Shown here in pieces: positions 4,261-50,233 of a stretch of 64,000 bases of DNA. The notes under the pieces are model-generated. The model saw nothing but the letters and a program-made list of their open reading frames with translations. It was not told the DNA's origin and did no database searches. The DNA comes from an uncultured Candidatus Saccharibacteria bacterium (lineage in GTDB: Bacteria > Patescibacteriota > Minisyncoccia > Minisyncoccales > UBA10102), in contig CAYHVI010000002.1 of NCBI GenBank assembly GCA_964359655.1, forward strand, positions 176 to 64,175. Reading direction: 5' to 3'. Numbering within the stretch: the stretch's first letter is position 1; every line of letters begins with the position of its first letter. Both the position numbers and the translations under genes were made by a program.

Positions 4261-4866
4261 ATGTACCCAAAGTCAATCCAAAAGCTGATTGAAATATTTT
4301 CCCATTTTCCTACAGTTGGCCCGCGGGTAGCTAGCCGTTTTGTTTTCTATCTTCTCAAAGCGCAAGATAGCGAGATTGACGATTTCATCAAAGCGCTTCA
4401 CAACCTAAGAAAAGAGATTCGTCCGTGCACGTTTTGTTTCAATCCTTTTGACGTCAGAGACGACGAACAACAAACAGGACTTTGCGCAATTTGTCGCGAT
4501 GCCACGCGAGATATGACTCTTTTGTGTATCGTGGAGAAAGAAAGTGATTTGGAGCAATTGGAGAAAACGAAGCATTATCGCGGCCGTTATTTTCTCTTAG
4601 GCAAGATCAATGATATTTTAAGGAAAGAAGGCTTGCAAAGCATTAAAGCGCAAGAGTTAAAAAGTCGAATGGCAAACGAGATCAAAGAGGTTATTCTTGC
4701 GTTGAATCCTACAACAGAAGGCGAAGCTGGCGTGCTGTATTTGGAGCGCTTGTTGAAACCTTACGGCAAGAAAGTCACCCGCCTCGGCCGCGGTCTTCCC
4801 GTAGGAGGCGAGCTCGAATACGCAGACGACGAAACCATACGAGGCGCCCTCGAGGGCAGACGATAA
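4261..4866 (+). CDS. recR: Recombination protein RecR
   Basis: MYPKSIQKLIEIFSHFPTVGPRVASRFVFYLL, a C4 zinc finger (CTFC...CAIC) and a Toprim region. Confidence 0.92.
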   Translation: MYPKSIQKLIEIFSHFPTVGPRVASRFVFYLLKAQDSEIDDFIKALHNLRKEIRPCTFCFNPFDVRDDEQQTGLCAICRDATRDMTLLCIVEKESDLEQLEKTKHYRGRYFLLGKINDILRKEGLQSIKAQELKSRMANEIKEVILALNPTTEGEAGVLYLERLLKPYGKKVTRLGRGLPVGGELEYADDETIRGALEGRR

Positions 4867-4890
4867 TATGTTTAAAGCCCGGCGTTAAAC

Positions 4891-5448
4891 ATGGAATTAT
4901 TTCTTACTTCCTTATTCTGGTTTTTGGTAGCTGCGGTATTTGCTGTAGTTGAAATTGAGGTTGAAGGAAAGCACGGCTGGGCAGAGAAAACTTCCACTTG
5001 GTTCAGAACAAAGGGATTAGCTGCAAAATTGTATGGATTGGCAATGGGCGTGCCATGGTCACCTGCGAGAGAACTCCTGGTGCTTGCAATGTATTTTGTT
5101 TGGATGCCGACATGGGATTTTCTATGGTTTGTGTTAAACCCTTATTACGGAGTAAAAAAATTTAAAAAACAAAATGTATGGTGGCATAACCGCAGCCATT
5201 GGTTATTCAATATTACACCGCTTGATTATCTTTTTGGTTGGGGTTTATCAGTAATGCTTTCTGGACTTGCTGCTTGGTTGGCGTCTGATGGAGTCTTGTT
5301 GATCAGGCACTCTTACTTTATGATATGGTTTCTTTTCTTTACTGTTGTAACGATTCTTCTAGTGGCTCCGTTATACAAGCGCTGGCACGCAAAAATGCGC
5401 CAGCGCGATGACCGCGATAGTTCTGGCATTTTCCACCAAGAAGGTTAG
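4891..5448 (+). CDS. Hypothetical integral membrane protein
   Basis: 185 aa with several hydrophobic helices and no recognisable motif. Confidence 0.5.
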   Translation: MELFLTSLFWFLVAAVFAVVEIEVEGKHGWAEKTSTWFRTKGLAAKLYGLAMGVPWSPARELLVLAMYFVWMPTWDFLWFVLNPYYGVKKFKKQNVWWHNRSHWLFNITPLDYLFGWGLSVMLSGLAAWLASDGVLLIRHSYFMIWFLFFTVVTILLVAPLYKRWHAKMRQRDDRDSSGIFHQEG

Positions 5449-5453
5449 ACCAA

Positions 5454-5479
5454 GAAAGCTACCCCTAGGGGTAGCTTTC
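5454..5479. terminator. Bidirectional hairpin terminator between convergent genes
   Basis: Perfect palindrome GAAAGCTACCCCTAGGGGTAGCTTTC between the 4891..5448 ORF (+) and rplU (-). Confidence 0.7.
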
Positions 5480-5481
5480 TC

Positions 5482-5799
5482 TTATGTTTCGATAGATGTA
5501 ATTTCTACTTCAGAGTAAGGCTGGCGGTGTCCTTTCTTTACTTGCTCACGCTTTTTCGCCTTATACTTGAATACCACCACTTTTTTGTTTTTTCCCTGCT
5601 TTAAGATTTTGCCTTTTACTTTAGCTCCCTGCACCAATGGCGTGCCAATTTCAATACTTTTATCGTTTTGAAGCAATAGTACCTCTGAAAATTCAACATC
5701 ACTCCCTTCTTCTTGGGCGAGTTTCTCTACTTTAATTTTCTTGCCGGGAGAAACCAAGTATTGCTTTCCCCCTGTTTTAATAATCGCTAATTCTGCCAT
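5482..5799 (-). CDS. rplU: Ribosomal protein L21
   Basis: MAELAIIKTGGKQYLVSPGKKIKVEKL is a typical L21 N-terminus. The internal ATG was chosen as start. Confidence 0.92.
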   Translation of the reverse strand: MAELAIIKTGGKQYLVSPGKKIKVEKLAQEEGSDVEFSEVLLLQNDKSIEIGTPLVQGAKVKGKILKQGKNKKVVVFKYKAKKREQVKKGHRQPYSEVEITSIET

Positions 5800-5833
5800 A
5801 TAAAGTGTAGTATAGGGCAATTTTTGCTCGGGG

Positions 5834-6868
5834 TCAAGACTCTTCTTGCTCTGGTTTTTGGAGTTGGAGAGTTTCTATTTCGCTGGGTTGACCCGTGATT
5901 TTAACAATATCTTTGTCTACTTTGCCGAGTTCTTTATACGCTGTGTTATAGGTATTCACGGTAGTGCCAAGATGGCTGCCGAGTTTTTTCATATAGCCTT
6001 CATAAGAAGCTAAATGCCGCTGAAGATCTTCCACGCGTCTGTGGATTTCTTTTGCAGATTCCTCAATTTGCATTGCCTTGAGTCCCTGGAGGACTGTTTG
6101 TAAATATGCGAGAAAAGAGGTGGGTGAAACAATAATCACTCGATATTTTCCTGCTGCTCTTTGTACAAGGTTTTCCGTATCTTCGCCAAGCGCTCCGATT
6201 TTGTTGATGAGAAGGTCGTAATAAATGGCTTCGTGTGGGATGAACATAAAAGCAAAATCGGTTGTCCCCTGTTCAGGTTGAATGTACTTTGAGGTTTCAA
6301 CAATACGGTTTTTCAGATCGTTCACAAAAGCTTTCTCCAAGCGGTTACGTTCCGTTTGATCTTGCGTTTCAGAGATACGATTATAATTTTCAAGAGAGAA
6401 TTTAGAGTCAATAGGTATGATTTTGTCTTTCACGAATACCACCGCATCCACAATAGTTCCGTCTGGAAATCCATACTGCATTTGGTAGGAGCCCGGCGGC
6501 ATTACGTTTTTGAGAAGCGTTTCCAAATAGTATTCTCCCAACACTCCCCGTTGCTTCGGATTTTTTAAAATGTCCTGGAGATTCTTGAGTTGGTCGGTAA
6601 TATTCATCACCTGCTTTTGTCCTTCGCTTACGCGCGTGAGCTCTTCAGTAATATTCTGAATAAGTTTTGCTGATTCTGAATACTGCTGCTGGAACATTTT
6701 TGCAGAGGTGCCGAGCTTTTCATCGAGCGTATTGCGTAAGTCCTGCAGCTGATTTTGAATCATCAAAATTTCCTGACTCCCACTCCTCTGTTTGGAGTTT
6801 TTAAACCATGTAAAGAAAATTACAATTCCTAAAATCGCAATAAAGATGAGGTATCCTAAGTCTTGCAT
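5834..6868 (-). CDS. rmuC: DNA recombination protein RmuC
   Basis: 344 aa with an N-terminal TM segment, a coiled coil, and an RmuC-type C-terminal region (TDFAFMFIPHEAIYYDLL). Confidence 0.85.
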   Translation of the reverse strand: MQDLGYLIFIAILGIVIFFTWFKNSKQRSGSQEILMIQNQLQDLRNTLDEKLGTSAKMFQQQYSESAKLIQNITEELTRVSEGQKQVMNITDQLKNLQDILKNPKQRGVLGEYYLETLLKNVMPPGSYQMQYGFPDGTIVDAVVFVKDKIIPIDSKFSLENYNRISETQDQTERNRLEKAFVNDLKNRIVETSKYIQPEQGTTDFAFMFIPHEAIYYDLLINKIGALGEDTENLVQRAAGKYRVIIVSPTSFLAYLQTVLQGLKAMQIEESAKEIHRRVEDLQRHLASYEGYMKKLGSHLGTTVNTYNTAYKELGKVDKDIVKITGQPSEIETLQLQKPEQEES

Positions 6869-6869
6869 G

Positions 6870-7856
6870 TTATTGATTCAATGAGTTTGTTCTCACAATA
6901 ATTTCTGCGAAGACAAACGCAATATAGAAGAATAAAAGAAACGCTGCTTCTTTGCGCGTAATTTTGTGTTCTGTGCGGAGAAATATGAGGAAAAAGAAGG
7001 CGGATCCGACAAGGAAAAAACGAGCCAAAGCAAAGGGCGAAAAGTTTTCTATGGATATGGGATGAATGAGAGCCACAATTCCAAGCACGAGTGTTGCCAT
7101 TACGATAACAGAACCCATTAAATCTCCCAAAATGACTCCGCTGTTTCTTTTTTTGGCGGCAGCAATCGTAAAGTAAATTTCTGGCAGAGCAGAGCCAAGT
7201 CCGAGTACGAGAATTCCGACGGTTACCACGGGAATCTCAAACTCTGCCACGAAGAACTGTATGGCGTACACCATTCCTTGCGCCGCTCCCAAAAGAAGCA
7301 TAATTGCCGCAAGTGTTTTGAAGATGCTCTGGACAAAGCGACGAAAGCGTGCCACTGGTTGGACTCCTTGTCGTGACGAGTCTGCATGATTGAACACAGA
7401 GGTGTATTCCTCGCGGTTGGAAAAAAGCCAGACGCTGTATAAGACAAATATGAGCAAAAGCACGAGAGCGTCTCCTCTTCCAAGTTCTTTATCTAAGATG
7501 AGGAGAAGGGGTAGGATTGCAATGAAAATCGTGAAGAGCAAAGACTTTTGGATAAGAGACCCTTCTGCTTTTAATTCTCTGGCAACGAACACGGCAATGG
7601 CTGCCACGAGCGTAAAGTCCACTACGCTGTTACCCACGATATCGCCAAAGGAAAGTTCGGGGATGCCGCTAAAGGCGGCAATAATACCAACAAAGAGGTT
7701 GGGGAAAGAAGCCACCACGGCCATTACAAAAAAGGTAACCACAAATTCTTTCCAACCCAAATACCGCGCAATGTGAGTGATGCTTCCTACGAGCCAGTTT
7801 ACCGACCAAAGTAAAAGAAGTCCGGAAAAGAGAAAAAGCAAAAAGTAAAATTGCAT
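6870..7856 (-). CDS. Na+/Ca2+ (CaCA family) exchanger-type membrane protein
   Basis: Two alpha-repeat signatures (GDIVGNSVVDFTLVAAIA and GDLMGSVIVMATLVLGIV) in a protein of about 10 TM segments. Confidence 0.8.
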   Translation of the reverse strand: MQFYFLLFLFSGLLLLWSVNWLVGSITHIARYLGWKEFVVTFFVMAVVASFPNLFVGIIAAFSGIPELSFGDIVGNSVVDFTLVAAIAVFVARELKAEGSLIQKSLLFTIFIAILPLLLILDKELGRGDALVLLLIFVLYSVWLFSNREEYTSVFNHADSSRQGVQPVARFRRFVQSIFKTLAAIMLLLGAAQGMVYAIQFFVAEFEIPVVTVGILVLGLGSALPEIYFTIAAAKKRNSGVILGDLMGSVIVMATLVLGIVALIHPISIENFSPFALARFFLVGSAFFFLIFLRTEHKITRKEAAFLLFFYIAFVFAEIIVRTNSLNQ

Positions 7857-13558: not shown

Positions 13559-13990
13559 TTAAATCCCAAGTTCTTTTAATCGTTCAGCCATATCCCCTAC
13601 CTCTTTTTCGATACGTTTCTTGTATGTTTCCCATTTTTGTTCATCCCAAATTTCAATTCGGTTGTACACGCCCGCAACGACAATCTTTTTTTGCAAAGAG
13701 GCATATTCTTTCAAGTAATCTGGCACCAGAATTCTCCCAAGTTTATCTAAGTCTGCTTCCATTGCGCCGGCTAACATTAACCTGGCAAATCCTCGTGCGT
13801 CAGCCTGCGCTAAAGGCAATTTGCTTAACTTATCTGCCAAAATCTCCCATTCTTGATAAGAATATAAAAAGAGACATTGATCTAATCCTCGGGTAACCAC
13901 TGCTTTTTTCCCAAGTATTTGGCGAAATTTGGCAGGGATTGCAAGCCGCTTTTTTTCATCGATCGAATATGTGAATTCTCCAAGGAACAT
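13559..13990 (-). CDS. mraZ: Transcriptional regulator MraZ
   Basis: MFLGEFTYSIDEKKRLAIPAKFR is the MraZ N-terminus. The internal ATG was chosen because the region 13991-14057 carries the operator repeats. Confidence 0.92.
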   Translation of the reverse strand: MFLGEFTYSIDEKKRLAIPAKFRQILGKKAVVTRGLDQCLFLYSYQEWEILADKLSKLPLAQADARGFARLMLAGAMEADLDKLGRILVPDYLKEYASLQKKIVVAGVYNRIEIWDEQKWETYKKRIEKEVGDMAERLKELGI

Positions 13991-14032
13991 AAGAAGGTAT
14001 AAAGAAGTTTTCCACAGAAATCCCGAGTTTTC

Positions 14033-14057
14033 CCCACATTTATCCACAACCTCCCAC
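14033..14057 (-). promoter_or_regulatory. Putative MraZ operator: three GTGGG/GTGGA repeats with 10-bp phasing
   Basis: Minus strand reads GTGGGaggttGTGGAtaaatGTGGG (plus-strand cccac/tccac at 14033, 14043, 14053). Extra copies lie at 14011 and 14074. Confidence 0.65.
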
Positions 14058-14066
14058 CAATCTCTA

Positions 14067-14095
14067 ACTATATCCCACCCTTAACCCCTCGTCAA
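14067..14095 (-). promoter_or_regulatory. Sigma70-type promoter of the mraZ (dcw) operon
   Basis: TTGACG, 17 nt, TATAGT on the minus strand. Confidence 0.6.
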
Positions 14096-14129
14096 CCACT
14101 TAGTTATCCCCAGCAAATCAAAACAAAAA

Positions 14130-14155
14130 ACAGCCCCTCGACAAAGCTCGAGGCT
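14130..14155. terminator. Hairpin terminator after hsdS (T/A tracts on both sides)
   Basis: CAGCCCCTCGAcaaagcTCGAGGCTG flanked by an A-run and a T-run. Confidence 0.7.
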
Positions 14156-14187
14156 GTTTTTTTTGAACAGTTTTATCTTCTAAGTTC

Positions 14188-15549
14188 CTATTTTGCCTGA
14201 TTTTCTATCATTTCCTCAACTTTTCGCTTCGCGGTTTCTAGTAATTCCTTTGCCTTTTTGCGCGACTCGTGAGATTGCCGCACAAGCTCGGCGATTCTCT
14301 GTTGTTTTTCCCTCGGCAAAATTGGAATCAGAACTTTTTTAATATCTTTATAACTAATGTTTGTTTGAACTCCTCCTGTTCCGATTTGCGCTAACTGGTA
14401 ATCTCCTACGATAGAATTTAGCAGAAACATCAGATAGTTTTCGTCAATTTCTTTTGGTTTAAATCTTAATATCCTTTGGTTAATACTACATCTAGGAATA
14501 TCGCTTGGAATTAGAGCTGACATGCCAATAGTTCCTGACATCGACAAAACAATATCGTCTGGTCTCGCAGTGTCCTTTGGCGATAACAAATAATCTCTTT
14601 CTGATAGATATACCGTGTCGCCCAGATCTAAAGACCCTCTTTTAATGTTATTTATCCTGATCAATGGGATACCGTGTTCTTGATAGTTTTCGCTTTTGAA
14701 CGGAAACCCCGTAGAATAATTTGCTACAAAGTTTTCTAGTGGCTTCGAGTTTTGCGATTTGAGTTTTGAGATTAATTTATCGTATTTCAGCTGAAAGTAT
14801 TCGGCGTCCATTCGATTCGCAGATTGAACATCCGAAAGATTCACAACATTATACAGGTCATCATTCAACTCAAAATCCTTGAGTCCTAATTCCTCCAAAA
14901 GCACCCCCTCCGCTTGAGAATACAATGTTTTTGAGTTTTGAAATTCTCGCCACGATCCATTTGATAATTCTGCTATTTTTTCTTGGGCTGACCGCGGAAG
15001 AATTGCTATTTTGATTTGCTTCAATTCCTCTGCATTAACATTCGCTTGATTAACTGCTCGCCTCGCAAATTTTCGTATTTGCTTTAACCCATACGCCGAA
15101 TTCAGAAAAATATTGAGATAATCAGGTAAAATATCTCCATCTAGTTTTGTCTGCATTCTTATCAAATAGGAAGCAAAAACCGATTCTAAATTTTCCAATT
15201 TATAAATACCCGTTCTGCCAACAAATTCTTCTGAATTCACCCTGTTAAATAGCACATCATTTTTCTTCAGCTGAAACTCTTTGAAAATTGTAGTCGGAAT
15301 ATCTGCGAATCGAACCTCGTCATCAAAAAGAAAACTATGGTTTATGTCATTCATCTTGAAAATCGGATATCCTATTTTTTCGTCATTCATTGCTTGAGAT
15401 ATTCCGTATTGGCACAAACTCAAAGCATCACCTATTGGTTGCCATTTCCTTTTGGAGAAATCAATAAAATACTCTGGCTGATAATACTCTGCATCCAGCC
15501 GTAAAGCTCCCTCAAGTTGCGATTTTTGGATTATTGAATAGGTAATCAT
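14188..15549 (-). CDS. hsdS: Type I restriction-modification specificity subunit
   Basis: MITYSIIQKSQLEGALRLDAEYYQPEYF. There are two target-recognition halves, each followed by a conserved helical region (second half AEYFQLKYDKL). Confidence 0.88.
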   Translation of the reverse strand: MITYSIIQKSQLEGALRLDAEYYQPEYFIDFSKRKWQPIGDALSLCQYGISQAMNDEKIGYPIFKMNDINHSFLFDDEVRFADIPTTIFKEFQLKKNDVLFNRVNSEEFVGRTGIYKLENLESVFASYLIRMQTKLDGDILPDYLNIFLNSAYGLKQIRKFARRAVNQANVNAEELKQIKIAILPRSAQEKIAELSNGSWREFQNSKTLYSQAEGVLLEELGLKDFELNDDLYNVVNLSDVQSANRMDAEYFQLKYDKLISKLKSQNSKPLENFVANYSTGFPFKSENYQEHGIPLIRINNIKRGSLDLGDTVYLSERDYLLSPKDTARPDDIVLSMSGTIGMSALIPSDIPRCSINQRILRFKPKEIDENYLMFLLNSIVGDYQLAQIGTGGVQTNISYKDIKKVLIPILPREKQQRIAELVRQSHESRKKAKELLETAKRKVEEMIENQAK

Positions 15550-15550
15550 T

Positions 15551-16381
15551 TCATGCGGATAGAATACTACTGCCGCTACTGCCCTGCTCACAACTGGGGC
15601 ATAGGTTAGAAGAAAGCACAGAAACCGACGTTATATCCTCCTTGTATCGTTTCCCGCACCTCCCACAAATCCTCTCACCCAGACTTGAAAACATGCCAAC
15701 ACCATTACCAATTCCGAGCGAAATAGTTGAGCCTGGTAAACCCGACACTCTAAGTCCTTCGCCGAATACTTGCGGCTGATCCCCCTTTAATTCTTTTACG
15801 CTTTTTTCTAACTCTTTTATTCGATTTTTTAGACGTTCTTTATCTTTATCTTCTCTAGCTTGAAGCAATTCTCTTTTATTCTTCAGGAGTTCCTCGATAT
15901 AAGATTTTAAAACATCTTGATAAATGCTCACTGTTTCTTTAACTTTTCTTAGTGCTGGCTCAATATCAACCCAATCCTCTACTCCCGATCTAATATTAAA
16001 CTCAAGAGCACTAAGGTGTCTGTCTACCTCTTTTAGACTTTCTATTTTGTTTTGTTGCTTAGATTTCTGAAATTCTCTTATCCATCCACGCAACTTTACA
16101 ATTTGCTGATTAATTGCCTCCAAGTTTCTCAGAGCAGATCTTCCCTTCTTTTCCAATAAAGAGTCTCCTCGTATTCGATCCCAATCATCCTTGATAAAAA
16201 TTCCGGCAATACCAGTAAGTATGGAAGCAAAAATCGCCAAAGAATTTGCCAGAGCCTCATCCTTTACGTTAAAAGAACCATACAAACCGAAAGCGGCAAC
16301 CACTATTGGTAAAATCGATCCCGGAAAAAACACAAGACTAAGAAACTCTTTCCATTTTTGAAAAAATCCTTTTTTATCCAT
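15551..16381 (-). CDS. Unknown protein embedded in the RM operon: 2 TM segments, long coiled coil, C-terminal zinc ribbon
   Basis: Start MDKKGFFQKWKEF overlaps the hsdM stop by 8 nt. The stop lies 1 nt before the hsdS ATG. Coiled coil includes ELLKNKRELLQAREDKDKERLKNRIKELEKSVKELK. C-terminus is CGRCGKRY...CPSCEQ. Confidence 0.6.
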   Translation of the reverse strand: MDKKGFFQKWKEFLSLVFFPGSILPIVVAAFGLYGSFNVKDEALANSLAIFASILTGIAGIFIKDDWDRIRGDSLLEKKGRSALRNLEAINQQIVKLRGWIREFQKSKQQNKIESLKEVDRHLSALEFNIRSGVEDWVDIEPALRKVKETVSIYQDVLKSYIEELLKNKRELLQAREDKDKERLKNRIKELEKSVKELKGDQPQVFGEGLRVSGLPGSTISLGIGNGVGMFSSLGERICGRCGKRYKEDITSVSVLSSNLCPSCEQGSSGSSILSA

Positions 16382-18335
16382 GAAAATTGAAGTTGTGTTC
16401 TTTTGCGAATTTAGTGAAGGCGGCCGCGATTTCGTCCAAGTCGTGGTCGAGGACTTTGCGGCCTTTATCGCTGTGCACATAGTTTCCCTTCGTGTCTTTC
16501 TTGTACACATAATCTCCCGAACTGTCTTTACCCGACTTTTTGGATACTGCCATAAAAATAGGGTAGTCTTTCAAAGGCTTTTCGTTTTTGTTCCATTTTT
16601 GGAGGAATAAGACGCTGGTTTTTGTGCCGGTATGTGGCTTAAATGTATTGCCGTGCAAACCGATTACCGCAAGAATACGAGCTTTATCAAAAAGCCATTC
16701 ACGGATATATTGCATACTCGTATTGTTCAACACGCCTTGCGGCAAAACAATCGCCATTCTTCCGCCGGGGCGAATCATATCGAGCGTGCGCTCAATAAAA
16801 AGAATATGACGCTCTACGTTGTTTCGCAATTTTCCGCCGTCTTTGCGCGCGAGTTCGTACTGGCGCAAAAGCGCATGGTCGGGGTTTTCTCCGGCAAATG
16901 GCGGATTGGTAAGAAGAATATCAAAATTAAGATGGCGATACGTAAGCTGGTTTTCTCTACTTTCGGTCGAATCATTGCTTTCCGTGAGGAGGCGCTTGAG
17001 TTCAACTCGCGCCTCTTCGCTTTCTATTCCCTGCCAATCTCTTGCATCTAAGGAATCACGTTTAAAAATGTGGTGTTTACCGTCTCCCGCGATAAGCATT
17101 AAGGCTTGGGAAATCCGGCGCATATTATCGTCAAAATCAATTCCGAAAAGATATTTTGCGGCATATTCTTTTTTGGCGGAGTCCGTGCGCAAATAGCGCT
17201 CCCACACATGATACATTGCGTGCAATAAAAATCCGCCGGATCCGCAGGCAGGATCAATAATATATTCACTGTCTTTGGGGTTGAGCATTTGAACGCACAT
17301 TTTAACAACATGCCGAGGCGTAAAGTATTGGCCCTTCTTTCCTTTTGATACCTCGCCGATAAGATGCTCAAACGCATTGTCGACAATTTCAAGCTCGCCC
17401 TGCCCGATTTCAAATAACCGAATATTTTCCAGAAATGCCGCGCAAATGCTAAGACGCGCGGGAGAAAGCCGGATTCGGTCTGATGATTCAAATATATCCG
17501 GCCATTCGCTAATGGCGTTGCGGAAAAGCTCATCGTTTATGACTTGATATGTTTTCTCGGGGTCTCGATATTTTCTGAAAAGTACTTCCTCTCCCTCCCT
17601 GCGCTCTCGAGCAATCTTTTCATCGTAGAGCTTTGCGAAAATGATTTTGAAGATTTCCTCAAATACATTGGCGCCAGAGCCCGCGAGCGCAAGTTCCTCC
17701 ATATGCTTTACAATTTCAACAAAGTCGAATCTTGGATTCAATCCTGTCCATGTCCTTTTTACTTCAAACAAATCATCTATTGTCTGATCTTCTTTAGGAA
17801 TATCACTCAAAGAATCTTCAAACTCTTTTGGATATGGCCGGTATAGCACTATCTTTTCTTTTCCGTTGGACCATACACCCATAAGAGAGCCCTCGGCGGA
17901 TAAATAGCTTTTGAGTTGCTCAATTCCTTTTCTCTCGGTAGGGCTTTTTACTTCGATAATGATGTACGGAGTAATCTTGTCTTTTGCGTATACAATGATA
18001 TCTGCGGCTTTGGCGTGAATCTCGCGGCCGAAGTGAACGCTCTTTTCTGTATCAATCCTTTCGAGAGAATATTTATAGTGAGTTTTGAGTTTGTTGAGCC
18101 AAAGCTGGCGGATAATTTCTTCTGGCCTTCCCTGTTGTTTGGTTTCATCGAATACAAAACGTTGTTTGCCCGACTTCAGGTCGCTGATATAAAAGCGGCC
18201 TCGTTCTTCTTCGGTAATTTCGAGAGCCTCGCCAAAATCGATATCCGCGAACTCTTTGAGGCCGTAGTTCATTTCTGGATCGCGAAAAATCTTATCGATG
18301 ACTTCTTTTACCCTATTTGGCTTTTTTGTTGGCAT
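16374..18335 (-). CDS. hsdM: Type I RM N6-adenine DNA methyltransferase subunit with an extra N-terminal PD-(D/E)xK-like (HsdR-N-type) domain
   Basis: 653 aa with an AdoMet motif DPACGSGGFL and a catalytic NPPF (LLTNPPFAGE). The N-terminal ~190 aa read EEIIRQLWLNKL...AADIIVYAKDKITPYIIIEVKSP...QLKSYL. Confidence 0.85.
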   Translation of the reverse strand: MPTKKPNRVKEVIDKIFRDPEMNYGLKEFADIDFGEALEITEEERGRFYISDLKSGKQRFVFDETKQQGRPEEIIRQLWLNKLKTHYKYSLERIDTEKSVHFGREIHAKAADIIVYAKDKITPYIIIEVKSPTERKGIEQLKSYLSAEGSLMGVWSNGKEKIVLYRPYPKEFEDSLSDIPKEDQTIDDLFEVKRTWTGLNPRFDFVEIVKHMEELALAGSGANVFEEIFKIIFAKLYDEKIARERREGEEVLFRKYRDPEKTYQVINDELFRNAISEWPDIFESSDRIRLSPARLSICAAFLENIRLFEIGQGELEIVDNAFEHLIGEVSKGKKGQYFTPRHVVKMCVQMLNPKDSEYIIDPACGSGGFLLHAMYHVWERYLRTDSAKKEYAAKYLFGIDFDDNMRRISQALMLIAGDGKHHIFKRDSLDARDWQGIESEEARVELKRLLTESNDSTESRENQLTYRHLNFDILLTNPPFAGENPDHALLRQYELARKDGGKLRNNVERHILFIERTLDMIRPGGRMAIVLPQGVLNNTSMQYIREWLFDKARILAVIGLHGNTFKPHTGTKTSVLFLQKWNKNEKPLKDYPIFMAVSKKSGKDSSGDYVYKKDTKGNYVHSDKGRKVLDHDLDEIAAAFTKFAKEHNFNFHG

Positions 18336-18360
18336 ACTTGTAGTGAGCGTATCGAACCTA

Positions 18361-19002
18361 CTACTTTATTGTTTTCCAATCGCCGTTTTTGAATACGCAA
18401 AGCACCTTTCCCAATAATCGCATTTCCTCCGTAAACGGGATAACGTTATACGCTGGATTTTCTGGTTTGAGATAAACATACGGCGGAGTGTCGTCTGATA
18501 TAAACCGCTTGATCGTTGCTTCGTCTTGAATCTGCGCGTGCACCACATCCCCCGAAGAAAATTCTTTTCTCTGTTCGATCAACACAACATCTTCACTGTC
18601 TATTCCAGCGTTTATCATTGAGTCCCCAGAGATTTTTAACATATAGACTTGCCCCTTCAACCTTGCTAGTCCCTCTTGGCTTGGCAGTGTTTCCCACTCT
18701 CCTGAAATCTCGATTGCCTCCATAGGAGAACCTGCGCTAGTAATCCCTAGAAACGGAGCAAGACGAGGACTTCCGAGAACCTCGTATGCCAAAGGCATTA
18801 AAACTAACCCCCTTGCCCCCTCATTGCGTCGAATCATGCCTTTGTGCGCAAGCTGCTGAAGATAATCAATCACCGATTGATTAGAAACAACATGTAATGC
18901 CTCTCGCATCTCCTCAAAAGTCGGAGGATAACCAGTCTCCTTGATATAGGTATAAATAACTTTCAGAAGCTCTTTTTGTCTTTGCGTAATAGGCTTCTGC
19001 AT
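18361..19002 (-). CDS. lexA: LexA-like repressor (wHTH plus S24 peptidase)
   Basis: N-terminus QRQKELLKVIYTYIKETGYPPTFEEMREAL. S24 domain with GDSM (Ser) and TIKRF (Lys). Confidence 0.85.
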   Translation of the reverse strand: MQKPITQRQKELLKVIYTYIKETGYPPTFEEMREALHVVSNQSVIDYLQQLAHKGMIRRNEGARGLVLMPLAYEVLGSPRLAPFLGITSAGSPMEAIEISGEWETLPSQEGLARLKGQVYMLKISGDSMINAGIDSEDVVLIEQRKEFSSGDVVHAQIQDEATIKRFISDDTPPYVYLKPENPAYNVIPFTEEMRLLGKVLCVFKNGDWKTIK

Positions 19003-19098
19003 ATGTATATAGTGTACCCGACTATTTCTTCTGGAGTCAACCCAAAGTTTTCCACAATGATGGGTCTGGAGTTTTTTGTACCTTGTTGAGGTTTTCCA

Positions 19099-23151: not shown

Positions 23152-24999
23152 ATGAAGATTTTCGAATTTCAATTTAATCCAAAGGCAAAGAAGGACAGGT
23201 TTTTCCGCGTGTTTTCGTTCGACCCGCCGCAGGAAATGCAACAGAGCGGAAGTATGTATATCGTGGGCGAGCTCCAGAATGCCTTGCCAAACAATTCCAC
23301 GTTTCTCGACCGGTTAGCTTCCCTTCTCTCGCAGGAGTATTATTCCGCAGAAAAACCAGCACAGAATGTTTCCCTAAGATTGAAAAACGCGCTCAAGAAG
23401 GGAAACGCTTTTTTGGCAGAGGAATCCAAAAATGGAAACGTGGATTGGCTTGGAAACCTGCATTTTCTGCTGCTCTTGTTTGTTCCTACTTCTCAAGGAT
23501 ATACGCTTTACTTTACCAAGGTTGGCGCACTGAAGCTTTGGATAGCCAGAGCAGGTTCGCTCGTTGACGCGGGGAAAAGCATTGAGTCTGCAAAGAAAGA
23601 TGAAAGTTCTACAAAAGTATTAGGAAATATGGGCTCTGGAAAAGTGATTTCAGGAGATAAGATTATGGCTCTCACCGCAGAAGCATTTGAATTTTTCTCC
23701 AAGGAAAACTTTTTGCAGACCTTAGCCCAGCTCAAAGAAGAAAAGCAGTTCAAGAGCATATTCAAATTAAAGCAGAAGGAAATGTCTCTCTTTTCGGGAG
23801 TTCTCTTTTTTGCGCTGGTTGAAACTTTGCAGCAGACGCCTGCCTCGCCCGACGGCAAACAAGGCAGGCTCGCCTTGCTACGAGGCAGGCTGGCGATTCC
23901 TCAACTCAAGATACCCCTTTTCCCTGCAAAAATTTCCCTTCCCTCACTTTCTGTGCCCCGAAAAATTCCTCTCCCTAGAATTTCTTTCCCATATGTTTCT
24001 GCGCTCAAAAAGAAGTTGCCGCTTTTGATGATTTCTGAAGCAAAAAAACGTATGGGACTTCTTCTCCTTCTTTGCTTTGTGCTGTTTTTGGGGTTTGCGC
24101 TCTTGGGAGGCGAAAGAAAAAATATGGACGACACTTCTCTACCGGCTGGCGGATTAGAGGAAGAAGAAATTTCAGAGGAATTGCGAGTATTGCATAAAAT
24201 CACGGAAATCGCAGAACCCGAGGTTGTAGTAAAACTCAATCCATCCATTACTGTTGCCAATCTCTCTCATATGATTCAACTGAAAAGCAGATTTTACTTT
24301 TTTGGACCTTCGTCATCAAACATTTTTGTATTCGACAGCGCAGCAAATACTTCAGAGATTTTTGATGCGGGGAAAAATCTTAAACTCGGCGTACGTTTTG
24401 AAGATTCTATTTTATTCTTCGCAGAACCAAACACGATTTTGTCAATTGACGGGCAGAATACAATAATCCAGCATACCTTGGAATCTTTTGCAGCAGAAGA
24501 AAAAATTGCAGATTTAGAGCAGTTCGCAGGCAATTTCTATTTTTTAGACTCACGAAATGGAGAGATTTTTAAATCCTCTCAGCCCTCTTTAAGAACGGCG
24601 AAATTCGAACGTTGGTTAGATCCTCTTTCTCCCAAAAAACCCATCGATGTTCAATCAATGAGCATTGATGGGAATATTTGGATTCTTACCACAGAAAACG
24701 AGATTCAACGATATTTTAGAGGAAGGTATCAAGAAAGCCTTAACCTTTCGATTTTCCCCGAGTTTCAAAACGCAACCCTGATTAAAACTACTTCGCAGCT
24801 TCCTTACCTTTATGTCCTGGAACCCCAGGAGCAACGCCTCGTGATTCTTAGCAAATCGGGCGAAGTTCTTAGGCAGTATCGAAGTCAAGCATTCGGGCAA
24901 GTTCGCGACTTTGCGGTTTCGCCAAACGGCCAAACAATCTATTTGTTTGACGGGGCAAAAGTCTATCAAATTTCACCGGTTAAGCTCAAATCTACTTGA
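23152..24999 (+). CDS. Hypothetical large protein with a central TM segment
   Basis: 615 aa with a TM segment [20 protein letters not shown]. No motif recognised. Confidence 0.5.
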
Positions 25000-46803: not shown

Positions 46804-48666
46804 ATGCTAAACTCTACAAATATGCAGAAAGATGCGGAAACCAAAGGTACTGACAGCGGAAGTATCGAGAATATACGGCCCTTCGACAAAGCTCAGGGTC
46901 AAAACATAGATTTGGAAAAGATAAGACATTCGTTTGCCCATGTGTTGGCGGCGGCCGTGAAAAAACTCTATCCCAAGGTGGAACTGGGAATTGGACCCGT
47001 CATTGAAAACGGGTTTTATTATGATTTTGGAAAACTCAAAATTACCAACGAGGATTTGCCAAAAATCGAGAAGGAAATGCGGCAGATTGCCATGGGTAAT
47101 CACGCGTTTAGAAAGGAACTTTGGCCAACCTCAAGGGCTACTACGTACTACAAAAAAGAAAAACAACCCTATAAACTCGAGCTGATTCGAGACTTACTAA
47201 AAACTGGAAAAGTTGGCATAGTCTATACCGGCGATGTGTTTTTGGATTTGTGTCGTGGCGGACATGTAAAGAATACAAAGGAACTCTCCCTGGATGCCTT
47301 TGCCTTAACCTCGGTTGCAGGCGCCTACTGGAGAGGATCCGAAAAAAATCCCATGCTTACTCGTATCTACGGGGTAGCATTCTCTACAAAGAAAGAACTC
47401 GATCAGCATCTATGGCGTGAAGCCGAGGCAAAAAAGAGAGATCATCGAATTTTGGGAGAACGACTCAAGCTTTTTACCTTTGCAAATGAAGTAGGCCCTG
47501 GGCTTCCCTTGTGGCTGCCGAATGGCACCATTATTCGCGAGGAAATCGAGAGGCGAGCAAAACAGGTAGAGCGCGAGTGGGGATATCAGCGCGTCACAAC
47601 TCCGCATATCGCAAAGGAAGATTTGTATAAAATTTCGGGCCACATCCCCTACTATGCAGACAGTATGTATCCTCCCATGAAGTTGGACGATGGAAATTAT
47701 TATTTGAAAGCGATGAACTGCCCGCATACCCACATGATTTATAAAGCAGAACCTCGGAGTTATCGTGATTTGCCAATTCGTTTTGCCGAATTTGGAACTG
47801 TGTATCGCTATGAGCGTTCTGGCACATTGGCCGGATTGCTTCGCGTGCGGGGATTTACTCAAAACGACGCCCATATTTACTGCACCGAAGACCAGGCAGA
47901 AGAAGAATTTTTGCAGGTAATGAAGCTGCATGAATTTTGGTACAGAGATGTATTTGGCATCAAAGATTTCTACATGCGACTTTCTCTTCCGGCAAAAGAC
48001 AAAGAGAAATATGCCGTCTCTCCTGCAGGATGGGCAAAATCCGTGGCTATTATAAGACGCGCTATGAAAAGGTCGGGACTTCCCTTTCAGGAAGTTAAAG
48101 GGGAGGCTGCATTTTATGGCCCAAAAGTAGATTTTCAAATCAAAAGCGCGATTGGACGCGAAGAATCGGCTTCAACAAACCAACTCGATTTTCTTGCCAC
48201 GAAAAGATTTAATTTGGTGTACAAAGACAAGGATGGAAAAGATAAACCTGTGTACGTAATTCACCGGGCTCCTTTGGGTTCCGAAGAGCGCTTCATCGCT
48301 TTTTTGATTGAACACTACGCGGGCGCATTTCCCTTTTGGTTAGCTCCCGAGCAAATTTGGATTTTGCCCGTATCTGACAAATTCGCTGCATACGCAAAGG
48401 AAGTACAAAAGAAGATGCTCAAAACAAATGAAGATTTACGTATCCGTGTAAACGATGCAAACGAAACGTTGGGCAAACGAATTCGGGAGGGTGAAACTAT
48501 GAAAATCCCCTATCTTCTTGTAGTAGGAGAAAAAGAGATGCAAGCAGGTGAAGTCAGCGTGAGAGAACGAGCGCGAGGCGACACAGGGAGTGTTGCGTTT
48601 CAAGCATTTATACAAAAGCTTACAAATATCTATGATCATTTCCCAAGGAGTACAAAAACTTATTGA
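46804..48666 (+). CDS. thrS: Threonyl-tRNA synthetase (no TGS domain); N-terminal start uncertain
   Basis: HSFAHVLAAAV...GFYYDF editing-type domain, class II catalytic core and anticodon-binding domain. The first ~35 codons contain a REP-like hairpin, so TTG at 46912 is an alternative start. Confidence 0.9.
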   Translation: MLNSTNMQKDAETKGTDSGSIENIRPFDKAQGQNIDLEKIRHSFAHVLAAAVKKLYPKVELGIGPVIENGFYYDFGKLKITNEDLPKIEKEMRQIAMGNHAFRKELWPTSRATTYYKKEKQPYKLELIRDLLKTGKVGIVYTGDVFLDLCRGGHVKNTKELSLDAFALTSVAGAYWRGSEKNPMLTRIYGVAFSTKKELDQHLWREAEAKKRDHRILGERLKLFTFANEVGPGLPLWLPNGTIIREEIERRAKQVEREWGYQRVTTPHIAKEDLYKISGHIPYYADSMYPPMKLDDGNYYLKAMNCPHTHMIYKAEPRSYRDLPIRFAEFGTVYRYERSGTLAGLLRVRGFTQNDAHIYCTEDQAEEEFLQVMKLHEFWYRDVFGIKDFYMRLSLPAKDKEKYAVSPAGWAKSVAIIRRAMKRSGLPFQEVKGEAAFYGPKVDFQIKSAIGREESASTNQLDFLATKRFNLVYKDKDGKDKPVYVIHRAPLGSEERFIAFLIEHYAGAFPFWLAPEQIWILPVSDKFAAYAKEVQKKMLKTNEDLRIRVNDANETLGKRIREGETMKIPYLLVVGEKEMQAGEVSVRERARGDTGSVAFQAFIQKLTNIYDHFPRSTKTY

Positions 48667-50233
48667 GGAATATAAACTCTGGCAGAAAGAAACTGAAGTT
48701 CGTGAAGAAGAAGAGGTAATCTCTGTTGACGAGGTGGTGGCTAGGGTAGCTTCCTTTTACGAAAAAATTAGAGAGATCGTGGACTGGCGTGAAGAGCATT
48801 TGCTTCGTAAAACCGCAATTGAGCGCATTTTGAAGCGCCGACTTACCGTATATAAGGTTAACGAGGATTTTGCCGAGAACTTTCTTTCAGAGCTTGTGCG
48901 TGGAGGGCATTTTCCGAACAACCGAATTTCGTTTAAACAAGTTGACGAGATTCAAGCCATCATTGAAAAGTATGTGTTTATTACCACGCATGTTCGAAAT
49001 GGACGAAATCAGAGTAAGAGAGATTCAGCAGAATGGATTCTCGCGATAGCCGCGGTGGAAATCGAGGAAGCGCTTTCTCTGCCTCGACGAGAACGCGCGC
49101 TCATTGAATCAATGACAGAGGATTTGGAAGCGCGCGTTCAATTGATTGCTCGAAAAAATGAACGAGGCGTGCTGCTTGCCGAATCGGAAAAGAAACTTCA
49201 GATTTATGTGGCAGTGCAAAAAGCGTTGTTCAAGCTCGATAACTCCACCATTACTTATCATATCTTGGAAAAATTTTACTCTGACTGGAAAACGCCTTCA
49301 CGAGAGACTCTTGCCTATGTTGCAGAGTATCTTGATACCCTGCGCGAGAATATTCAAAAAATTCTTTCTCATCTTCATGGAGAACGATTCTATCAACTCG
49401 CGGAAAAGTATGACACGCCTTATCTTATTTTAAACGACATACTCACGGAAGACAGCGACCGATTCGGAGAACTCGTAACCAATCCTGCTGCCCTGGAAGG
49501 CGCGATCCAACATGCGTACAACAAGCGCCATGCGAAATTGCGAAGCCGTATTGGGAGGGCTGCTCTTTACAGTGTCTTGTCGGTATTTCTCACAAAAGTG
49601 CTGGTTGCAATTATCCTTGAGATTCCCGTGGAGCGATATATGGGAACAGATCCCAACCAGCTTGCACTTGTTTTGAACGTTGCCATTCCTTCTCTTTTAA
49701 TGCTCCTTTTGGTTGGCACAGTACAAACAAGTTCGCAACGTAATTTTGAGCGAGTAATGGTGGAGGTTATGAAAATTATTCAGGTGCGTGATCGCCGGGA
49801 GGTATATAAAATCTTTCCACCGCGCAAAAGAAGCGGTCTTGGAGCAAGTATTGTCTATGTATTTTATCTTTTAAGTTTTATCATTTCTTTCGGCGTATTG
49901 GTATGGGTGTTGCAGAAACTCCAGTTTCCGTTTTTCTCTATTTTTATCTTCCTGATGTTTATTTCACTCGTGCTCTTTGCCGGGACGCGCATTCGTGCTC
50001 GTGCGCGCGAATTAATGATAGAGCCTGCGCGTGAGGGATTTCTGTACAATCTATTTGATATTTTTTCTTTGCCGATGATTCAGGTCGGAAGATGGCTTTC
50101 GGGTAAACTTGTGCGGTACAACGTTCTTACTCTTGTGCTGAATTTTCTCATTGAAGTGCCGTTTCAAATGTTTGTGGAGTTTTTGGAACAATGGCGAGGT
50201 TTCTTGCGCGAAAAGAAAGAAGAAATCCACTGA
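48632..50233 (+). CDS. Hypothetical protein with C-terminal multi-TM region
   Basis: 533 aa from MIISQGVQKLIEEYKLW. Soluble helical N-terminal half and 5-6 TM segments in the C-terminal half. Confidence 0.5.
   Translation: MIISQGVQKLIEEYKLWQKETEVREEEEVISVDEVVARVASFYEKIREIVDWREEHLLRKTAIERILKRRLTVYKVNEDFAENFLSELVRGGHFPNNRISFKQVDEIQAIIEKYVFITTHVRNGRNQSKRDSAEWILAIAAVEIEEALSLPRRERALIESMTEDLEARVQLIARKNERGVLLAESEKKLQIYVAVQKALFKLDNSTITYHILEKFYSDWKTPSRETLAYVAEYLDTLRENIQKILSHLHGERFYQLAEKYDTPYLILNDILTEDSDRFGELVTNPAALEGAIQHAYNKRHAKLRSRIGRAALYSVLSVFLTKVLVAIILEIPVERYMGTDPNQLALVLNVAIPSLLMLLLVGTVQTSSQRNFERVMVEVMKIIQVRDRREVYKIFPPRKRSGLGASIVYVFYLLSFIISFGVLVWVLQKLQFPFFSIFIFLMFISLVLFAGTRIRARARELMIEPAREGFLYNLFDIFSLPMIQVGRWLSGKLVRYNVLTLVLNFLIEVPFQMFVEFLEQWRGFLREKKEEIH

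Follow-up and report, generated by a model that had tools for sequence, protein, structure and literature searches.

The locus described here lies in a 64,000-nucleotide stretch (64 kb; hereafter the window, whose positions are used throughout) of contig CAYHVI010000002.1, from the metagenome-assembled genome of an uncultured Candidatus Saccharibacteria bacterium. It consists of four minus-strand genes in the order lexA, a gene first read as hsdM, a gene that matches no Pfam family (below, the cargo gene) and hsdS. The product of the second gene, which carries a nuclease and a methylase domain in one chain, is called here the restriction–modification (RM) subunit. Judged from sequence comparisons, the RM and S subunits most likely make up a BcgI/BsaXI-like Type IIB enzyme of (RM)2S form, which is a known kind. 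The noteworthy finding, as far as the sequences indicate, is the setting of this enzyme: an operon headed by lexA that recurs across the superphylum of the Candidate Phyla Radiation (CPR; Patescibacteria), with swappable RM modules and a hypervariable slot for defence cargo.

The tight packing of the four genes reported in the initial annotation was recovered with the same spacings from the open reading frame (ORF) listing and from the sequence itself (Table 1). Between positions 13900 and 19300, the minus strand holds only two promoter-like sites, one directly upstream of lexA (19040-19011) and the other belonging to mraZ (14095-14067). None lies between lexA and the RM gene, and the sole convincing terminator on the same strand of this interval is the one that follows hsdS. 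With one promoter and one terminator, lexA, the RM gene, the cargo gene and hsdS are predicted to form a single transcription unit, which bears out the earlier suggestion that lexA is transcribed together with the genes behind it.

It had also been claimed that the 64 kb lack hsdR, and this claim stands. A survey of large ORFs combined with Pfam found no HsdR or superfamily 2 helicase gene in the window. Outside the operon there are 12 ORFs of at least 496 residues, ten of which are housekeeping genes and two of which have no Pfam match. Nine of the ten encode DnaE, a P-type ATPase, PheT, GyrB, ThrS, CysS, DnaB, GatB and a ClpB-like AAA+ protein; the tenth, a 556-residue ORF in the mraZ cluster, is by eye a putative penicillin-binding protein. 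The two remaining ORFs, of 615 (23152-24999) and 547 residues (48590-50233), match no Pfam family at E ≤ 0.001 and are too short to be HsdR.

Table 1. Positions of the genes, domains and control elements of the lexA-headed operon in the window
Feature	Position	Strand	Details
lexA	19002..18361	-	213 aa; product with winged-helix DNA-binding domain and S24 self-cleaving domain (18361..19002); 25-nt gap before the RM gene
RM subunit ('hsdM')	18335..16374	-	653 aa
PD-(D/E)xK endonuclease domain	17796..18125	-	catalytic E97 (18047-18045), D112 (18002-18000), E128 (17954-17952), K130 (17948-17946)
Gamma-class N6-adenine methyltransferase domain	16398..17387	-	motif I DPACGSGGF; motif IV NPPF, aa 477-480
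Cargo gene (gene 3)	16381..15551	-	276 aa; ATG at 16381; 8-nt overlap with the hsdM stop
hsdS	15549..14188	-	453 aa; 1-nt gap after the cargo gene; translationally coupled
Intrinsic terminator	14126..14153	-	hairpin CCTCGAGCTTTGTCGAGG plus T-run directly after hsdS; closes the operon
Sigma-70-type promoter	19011..19040	-	-35 TTGACT, 19040-19035; -10 TACACT, 19016-19011
Putative LexA operator	19015..19034	-	CCAGAAGAAATAGTCGGG(TA), in the promoter spacer
DnaA-box-like 9-mer	19048..19056	.	TTTTCCACA on the + strand, ~8 nt upstream of the -35

LexA, its putative operator and the modules behind it

The first product of the operon scores 144 bits against TIGR00498, for which the equivalog cutoff is 111, and matches Pfam LexA_DNA_bind (PF01726) and Peptidase_S24 (PF00717). 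It keeps the Ala90-Gly91 cleavage site, Ser128 (in GDSM) and Lys165, all of them conserved among ~120 LexA homologues and the last two residues in at least 95% of these. Because the Ala-Gly site and the Ser/Lys dyad are kept, RecA filaments on single-stranded DNA (ssDNA) should trigger its self-cleavage.

When 33 cassette upstream regions were aligned, the elements TTGACA, CC[CA]GA[CA]-N6-GTCGGG and TATAAT fell in the same frame. The middle element, the putative operator, fills the promoter spacer between the -35 and the -10, and is a perfect palindrome in several loci. In the window the lexA ATG lies within ~9 nt of the -10 (6-8 nt in most aligned loci), so near that the lexA–RM mRNA is probably leaderless or nearly so. 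A position weight matrix (PWM) built from the aligned cassette sites was scanned over the window and 46 loci. It found one strong site in the 64 kb, with a score of 30.2 (runner-up 11.6), at the position upstream of lexA given in Table 1. Wherever a scanned locus bore lexA, the PWM found a site upstream of that gene; four of these lexA loci were outside the training set. The perfect palindrome ACCCGACYAWWTRGTCGGGT gave 120 matches in metagenome contigs, of which 58 sit 11-37 nt upstream of lexA; most of the others are hairpins that match by chance, in unrelated organisms with high GC (18 copies of one murB-like site are among them).

The gene order of the cassette is shared by 37 distinct loci, which are spread over many CPR lineages and whose flanks are unrelated; the four-gene arrangement is far beyond chance. 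Every locus with upstream sequence has lexA directly before the RM gene (36/36), every locus with downstream sequence has hsdS (36/36), and the gap between lexA and the RM gene is -4 to 25 nt in all measured loci but two. Across cassettes LexA is 46-67% and S 32-73% identical; RM is much more conserved.

The linkage extends beyond this enzyme family. Starting from the operator, we obtained 28 lexA loci with at least 2.5 kb of downstream sequence. Eight of these carry the present Type IIB family and the other 20 carry other restriction systems, which start -28 to +157 nt after lexA. The most frequent, at 11 loci, is an N6_N4 methylase with a putative restriction endonuclease (for example DUF6996/6997 or SfiI/BglI-like proteins). 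Four loci have a different 611-628-residue N6_Mtase protein together with an S protein; a nuclease-like N-terminal motif in the former was read by eye, and Pfam reports the methylase only. An Eco57I-type methylase with a Tsp45I endonuclease is found at three loci, a D12 methylase with a HARE-HTH protein at one, and a DpnI-family methyl-dependent enzyme at one. Four further lexA genes were picked by LexA similarity alone; three of them head a Type IIB cassette and the fourth an N6_N4 module. Thus, among lexA genes sampled independently of RM and with enough downstream sequence, 32 of 32 head a restriction system, and at least six types are represented. LexA proteins that are 84-93% identical can precede different RM types (L162 and L032, L138 and L118, L042 and L003), which indicates that RM modules have been replaced behind a constant lexA and promoter.

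Such frequent replacement could also be expected if the site downstream of a chromosomal lexA were simply an insertion hotspot for RM genes, with no meaningful regulation by LexA and with the shared orientation being incidental. The lack of synteny in the flanks would suit that explanation, and LexA binding and induction are predictions. However, the modules are always co-oriented with lexA and lie -28 to +157 nt from its stop codon, the gaps in Type IIB cassettes, in most cases -4 to 25 nt, leave no room for a promoter (none is seen in the window), and the 32 independently sampled lexA genes never head another gene class. The constant orientation, the short junctions and the lack of occupants other than RM argue for selection on the linkage itself, and we regard passive linkage as improbable, although it is the best placed of the alternatives considered here.

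No integrase or tRNA gene was found at the borders of the cassette in the window, and Rfam reported only tRNAs in the window as a whole. A serine recombinase beside one cassette (L001) recurs only at L047 and L115, and is therefore not a general feature of the cassettes; the copy at L047, which lies upstream of the Type I operon described below, is 84% identical to that beside L001. Viral contigs yielded no relatives of RM, so nothing suggests that phages carry the cassette.

From the conserved operator and the intact self-cleavage residues, we infer that LexA binds the operator and autorepresses the operon, that RecA-stimulated self-cleavage derepresses it, and that the operon is SOS-inducible. 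The SOS-like control proposed in the initial annotation is, on this sequence evidence, plausible. Several points weigh against it, or against its novelty. No recA gene was found in the 64-kb window. The PWM detected no second operator in the 64 kb, nor any comparable site in ~600 kb of related CPR flanks. At one locus (L013) the lexA–RM cassette is flanked by uvrB (4779-6902) and uvrA (13833-16547), which have no LexA operator (PWM scores below 5), hinting that canonical SOS genes lie outside the control of this LexA. Given the single operator and the uvr genes that lack one, LexA may be a local autoregulator only. A LexA motif and a small regulon in Patescibacteria have reportedly been described by Sanchez-Osuna, Barbe and Erill in 2017, and that work may already cover the operator or the link between lexA and RM genes. 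Our literature search found nothing linking LexA to RM systems in CPR.

Two further observations concern the lexA promoter. At another locus (L025:3296-7353), the gene for a 1316-residue UvrD/AddA-like helicase is divergent from the lexA promoter; it shares with lexA a 110-nt intergenic region that holds the operator, which may place it, too, under LexA control in that genome. In addition, 57 of the 78 unique lexA promoters from Patescibacteria carry a TTATCCACA-like box (one mismatch at most) 20-29 nt upstream of the operator, just 5' of the -35, compared with 2.9% of random control windows from the same loci. Through this DnaA-box-like 9-mer a further signal, for example DnaA or the state of replication, may act on the promoter. 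Two more members of the 9-mer family lie upstream of mraZ (14008-14016 and 14040-14048; GTGGATAAATGTGGGG...GTGGAAAAC on the minus strand), and these may be MraZ boxes instead of DnaA boxes. For mraZ itself, the start is probably the internal Met of MFLGEF (~13990), not the GTG at 14047.

Operons headed by lexA are familiar from the SOS response: in lexA-dinF and the lexA-linked imuA-imuB-dnaE2 cassettes, lexA is autoregulated and is co-transcribed with, or linked to, the genes behind it, and such cassettes are reported in work of the Erill and Barbe laboratories to disperse as units. The present operon differs in having RM genes downstream instead of genes for repair or mutagenesis. By analogy, it also resembles the C-protein Type II RM systems, in which a small dimeric repressor is encoded first in the operon, acts on an autoregulated shared promoter and keeps expression low and buffered. 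Here, however, the repressor is not of the XRE type but a true LexA whose RecA-responsive module for self-cleavage is intact, which would add an input from DNA damage that C proteins lack.

The RM and S subunits

In the 653-residue RM protein, Pfam places HSDR_N_2, which has the PD-(D/E)xK nuclease fold, at residues 71-180 (E = 1e-20) and N6_Mtase at residues 317-646 (E = 3e-37); it finds no HsdM_N domain. The top relative in the PDB is RM.BsaXI, a Type IIB protein to which the similarity runs end to end (E = 3.8e-33 for the sequence by itself, 5.7e-40 for the family profile). The second-best match is an adenine methyltransferase that is not labelled Type I (E = 1e-21); matches to the named Type I HsdM chains have E ~1e-17 or weaker. 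With the profile, the nuclease domain alone is significant against BsaXI in the same register (independent E-value 0.0026). The four catalytic residues E97, D112, E128 and K130 align to E73, D90, E105 and K107 of BsaXI, which have been found by mutagenesis to be essential for cleavage and are conserved across Type IIB enzymes (PMC11997821). Each of the four is unchanged throughout the RM family (120/120 members), in a protein that elsewhere averages ~62-88% identity, and so are motifs I (CGSGGF) and IV (NPPF) of the methyltransferase.

The likeness to BsaXI (PDB 8w0p; PMC11997821) includes the layout, in which an N-terminal PD-(D/E)xK nuclease with a conserved E/D/ExK tetrad is followed by a helical connector and a gamma-class N6-adenine methylase, and a separate S subunit has two target-recognition domains (TRDs). 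The window protein is shorter than BsaXI (653 against 916 residues) and lacks its C-terminal 'paddle', which is also missing from the shorter BsaXI relatives of fewer than 800 residues (PMC11997821). It has in addition a ~65-residue N-terminal segment that BsaXI does not have, and the S subunits are marginally similar. BcgI, the archetype of the two-subunit Type IIB enzymes with A2B composition (PMC3592470, PMC3592466), can be likened to the proposed window enzyme by description, not by sequence: its A subunit combines nuclease and methylase, its B subunit is HsdS-like, its site is bipartite and it has no ATPase. BcgI needs two sites and cleaves eight bonds.

The S protein matches Pfam Methylase_S in two stretches, which represent two TRDs, as well as many PADLOC Specificity_I models (E down to 3e-50), and its best PDB match is the S subunit of EcoKI (E = 1e-20). 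Its low identity to the S proteins of other cassettes is as expected for swappable TRDs. In terms of size, the window RM is similar to the A subunit of BcgI, which has ~637 residues. No link between BsaXI and lexA is known.

A chain in which nuclease and methylase are fused, working with a specificity subunit, needs no HsdR. Since RM holds both active sites, S has two TRDs and there is no ATPase, we place the enzyme in Type IIB, in which systems of the BcgI kind consist of an RM subunit with both active sites and an S subunit that reads a bipartite site, without an ATPase (PMC3592470, PMC3592466). It would then be an ordinary, though uncharacterised, member of that class, and neither a Type I system without R nor an orphan methylase; its (RM)2S stoichiometry and double-sided cleavage are presumed from its relatives. 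This revises the description of the locus as a Type I-like RM operon without hsdR. The absence of hsdR was correctly seen, but the supposed hsdM most likely encodes a Type IIB RM subunit whose closest solved relative is RM.BsaXI. Nor is the set a non-canonical defence system, as had been proposed, since a nuclease–methylase fusion with an HsdS-like subunit is the definition of a two-subunit Type IIB enzyme. Restriction had been tentatively attributed to the extra domain of HsdM, to the embedded protein, or to both; the fused nuclease, with the BsaXI tetrad kept, agrees with the first of these, whereas the second is contradicted by the variability of the slot described below.

Some results fit the Type IIB assignment less well. 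The alignment of the N-terminal domain of RM to BsaXI is short and scores low (11-19 bits), and that of S to S.BsaXI is marginal (E = 0.009). The best PADLOC model for RM is 'MTase_I' (548 bits, full-length), so that database labels place the RM family in Type I. The AlphaFold2 model of RM, made from a 26-sequence alignment, has a mean predicted local distance difference test (pLDDT) score of 54, which is too poor for a fold search, and the fold comparison therefore rests on sequence and profile evidence.

A solitary methyltransferase, one of the options in the initial annotation, would use M and S to methylate a bipartite motif and nothing more, its N-terminal domain being inactive or serving as a DNA-binding or oligomerisation module. 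There is no separate restriction gene in the window, the source annotations of the RM family are only 'N-6 DNA methylase' or 'type I M protein', and the M2S1 form of Type I enzymes is an active methylase by itself, all of which would be in keeping with such a role. Against this stands the invariance of the nuclease tetrad, the four residues essential in BsaXI, through 120 relatives whose identity elsewhere averages ~62-88%; this alone disfavours a solitary methyltransferase. Furthermore, the architecture is that of a characterised restriction enzyme, S shows the TRD hypervariability typical of RM systems in an arms race, and the slot holds cargo of defence type. We therefore consider an orphan methyltransferase unlikely, more so than passive linkage, and continue with the Type IIB assignment.

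Homologues of RM number in the thousands, at 73-81% identity, in many CPR phyla. Other relatives include an RM and S pair without hsdR on a Klebsiella IncF plasmid (42% identity) and a protein of 1179 residues, with RM and S fused, on plasmid pAQ6 of Picosynechococcus PCC 7002 (L172, NC_010480.1). The pair and the fusion mirror the two known Type IIB layouts. The 1179-residue protein is annotated only as 'N-6 DNA methylase', and its gene has as neighbours a RelE/ParE toxin gene and one resembling strawberry-notch helicases. It probably represents a single-chain Type IIB enzyme that has gone unrecognised in a model cyanobacterium. Both of these homologues lack the extension of ~65 residues before the nuclease domain (residues 1-66, 18138-18335), their alignments beginning at residue 68. 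The extension is well conserved in CPR and is the best-modelled part of RM (pLDDT 72-89).

The cargo gene and the slot between RM and S

The 276-residue cargo protein has two N-terminal transmembrane helices, then a helical or coiled-coil body with the invariant motifs LEKKGRSALRNL and EDWVDI, and a C-terminal CxxC...CxxC zinc ribbon. It matches no Pfam family, and a Foldseek comparison of its model (pLDDT 76) with the PDB gave nothing at E < 1, just generic helical bundles and BAR-like matches. The family has 37 members. Homologues occupy the same position between RM and S at two other loci (L007 and L049), and another is found in a canonical Type I operon with HsdR, where it separates hsdM from hsdS (L047).

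The interval between RM and S varies from 0 to 1.9 kb. At 4 of 36 loci it contains no gene; elsewhere it holds one to three co-oriented genes, whose 45 proteins fall into 32 sequence clusters. By Pfam and PADLOC these include OLD/AriA/GajA/mad3-like ATPase-TOPRIM proteins, DUF3800 (PDC-M04A), NYN nucleases, RnlA-DBD proteins, a Clp protease, a trypsin-like protease, DUF4145 and DUF6602. The slot is thus, on these family assignments, hypervariable and often filled with defence-like cargo. Because it can be empty and is otherwise filled by 32 unrelated clusters, the embedded protein is not a restriction component, and since the window family also occurs in a Type I operon, it appears to be an accessory passenger of M–S slots. 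The window cargo gene is accordingly predicted to be dispensable for the RM core. To see in it a membrane-acting abortive-infection effector is only a guess. In the window, the G+C fraction falls to 0.38 over 14000-16000 (hsdS and the cargo gene), compared with ~0.44 for lexA, for RM and for the window on average, which fits a recent replacement of the S and cargo modules.

The occupants of the slot bring to mind the MADS defence systems (Maestri et al. 2024) and, more generally, multi-component defence in which the M and S pair would mark self and the embedded membrane and zinc-ribbon protein, or other cargo, would be the effector. The best named NCBIfam matches are indeed MAD2 for RM (299 bits) and MAD5 for S (147 bits), slots in some sister cassettes hold a mad3/OLD-like ATPase and others match Old, AriA, GajA, NYN or DUF3800 proteins, and two transmembrane helices, as in the window cargo, are found in many abortive-infection effectors. 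Nevertheless, the two scores are far below the equivalog cutoffs of 720 and 400, on which membership of MADS was ruled out. The operon has no other mad genes, consisting as it does of two core genes and a regulator apart from its cargo. No cargo is a fixed partner, as the empty slots and the unrelated clusters attest, and that of the window belongs to a family also at home beside HsdR. An effector-based system of this sort is thus very unlikely, even when set beside the orphan methyltransferase, and the cargo is better read as an accessory to a Type IIB enzyme.

The Type I operon in question (L047:4290-11953) encodes a MerR-HsdM_N-N6_Mtase protein, the cargo homologue, HsdS, a 340-residue protein without assignment and HsdR. 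Its M subunit has a fused MerR-type helix-turn-helix, and the CPR cassettes have a separate lexA instead. Accessory genes embedded between hsd genes are known elsewhere, prrC in EcoprrI being an example. Type I enzymes such as EcoKI and EcoR124I share with the window enzyme a two-TRD S subunit, an NPPF methylase and an expected bipartite target. They differ from it in having an HsdR motor and HsdM_N and in not having the nuclease fused to the methylase. A Type I-like system without R was rejected because RM is far nearer to BsaXI than to any solved HsdM, lacks HsdM_N and has a nuclease of its own, and because no HsdR is found in the 64 kb or at related loci. That the locus is a canonical Type I system with its hsdR elsewhere in the genome is the least probable alternative, a very remote one: in its favour, the sequence in view covers no more than 64 kb of the genome, Type I systems split between loci exist, PADLOC calls the M protein 'MTase_I' and S is closest to that of EcoKI, but gene tables and large-ORF lists show no HsdR near the 37 related cassettes (flanks of up to 8-10 kb per side where the contig allowed), RM is at least 18 orders of magnitude nearer to the Type IIB RM than to the next solved adenine methylase or HsdM, its own nuclease is intact, and homologous RM and S pairs on small plasmids also lack hsdR.

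Proposed mechanism and implications

Taking the evidence together, we think it likely that the locus is a single LexA-autorepressed operon for a two-subunit, BcgI/BsaXI-like Type IIB enzyme and one accessory cargo gene. In this scheme, two RM subunits would bind one two-TRD S subunit, which would read a bipartite site. Hemimethylated or host DNA would be methylated on both half-sites, and the fused nuclease domains would cut unmodified foreign DNA close to the site, and to either side of it if the enzyme behaves as BcgI and BsaXI do, without an ATP-driven HsdR motor. Transcription would start from the sigma-70 promoter with the palindromic LexA operator in its spacer, and LexA, as the first product, would keep the whole operon at a low set-point. 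RecA-ssDNA filaments, arising from DNA damage or from processed ends of restricted or foreign DNA, would then cause LexA to cleave itself, giving a burst of RM and cargo expression.

A more tentative extension, which we hold to be possible but on balance doubtful, is that LexA has been repurposed in Patescibacteria as a master controller of restriction. Here lexA and its operator promoter, flanked by the DnaA-like box, would form a dock for swapped RM modules and defence cargo, restriction being kept low and boosted through RecA, with a regulon that perhaps includes little beyond the operon. The modules exchanged at such a dock may comprise Type IIB enzymes, several Type II pairs of M and R, the pair of a nuclease–methyltransferase with S, and the DpnI-like enzyme.

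For annotation, the consequence is that the labels 'type I M protein' and 'N-6 DNA methylase' in CPR probably hide complete restriction enzymes by the thousand. For biology, it is the regulatory context that matters rather than the enzyme. RM systems are usually seen as constitutive or as controlled by C proteins, and the SOS response is known to alleviate Type I restriction, not to drive it. CPR organisms largely lack CRISPR and depend on the uptake of foreign DNA. The locus offers a defined promoter and operator for CPR genetics, and the variable slot between RM and S is a natural place for mining new defence genes. It also presents a testable case of positive feedback between the DNA ends generated by restriction and the expression of restriction genes. 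If the proposed control is true, lexA-headed restriction operons across the superphylum would tie the sensing of DNA damage directly to innate immunity.

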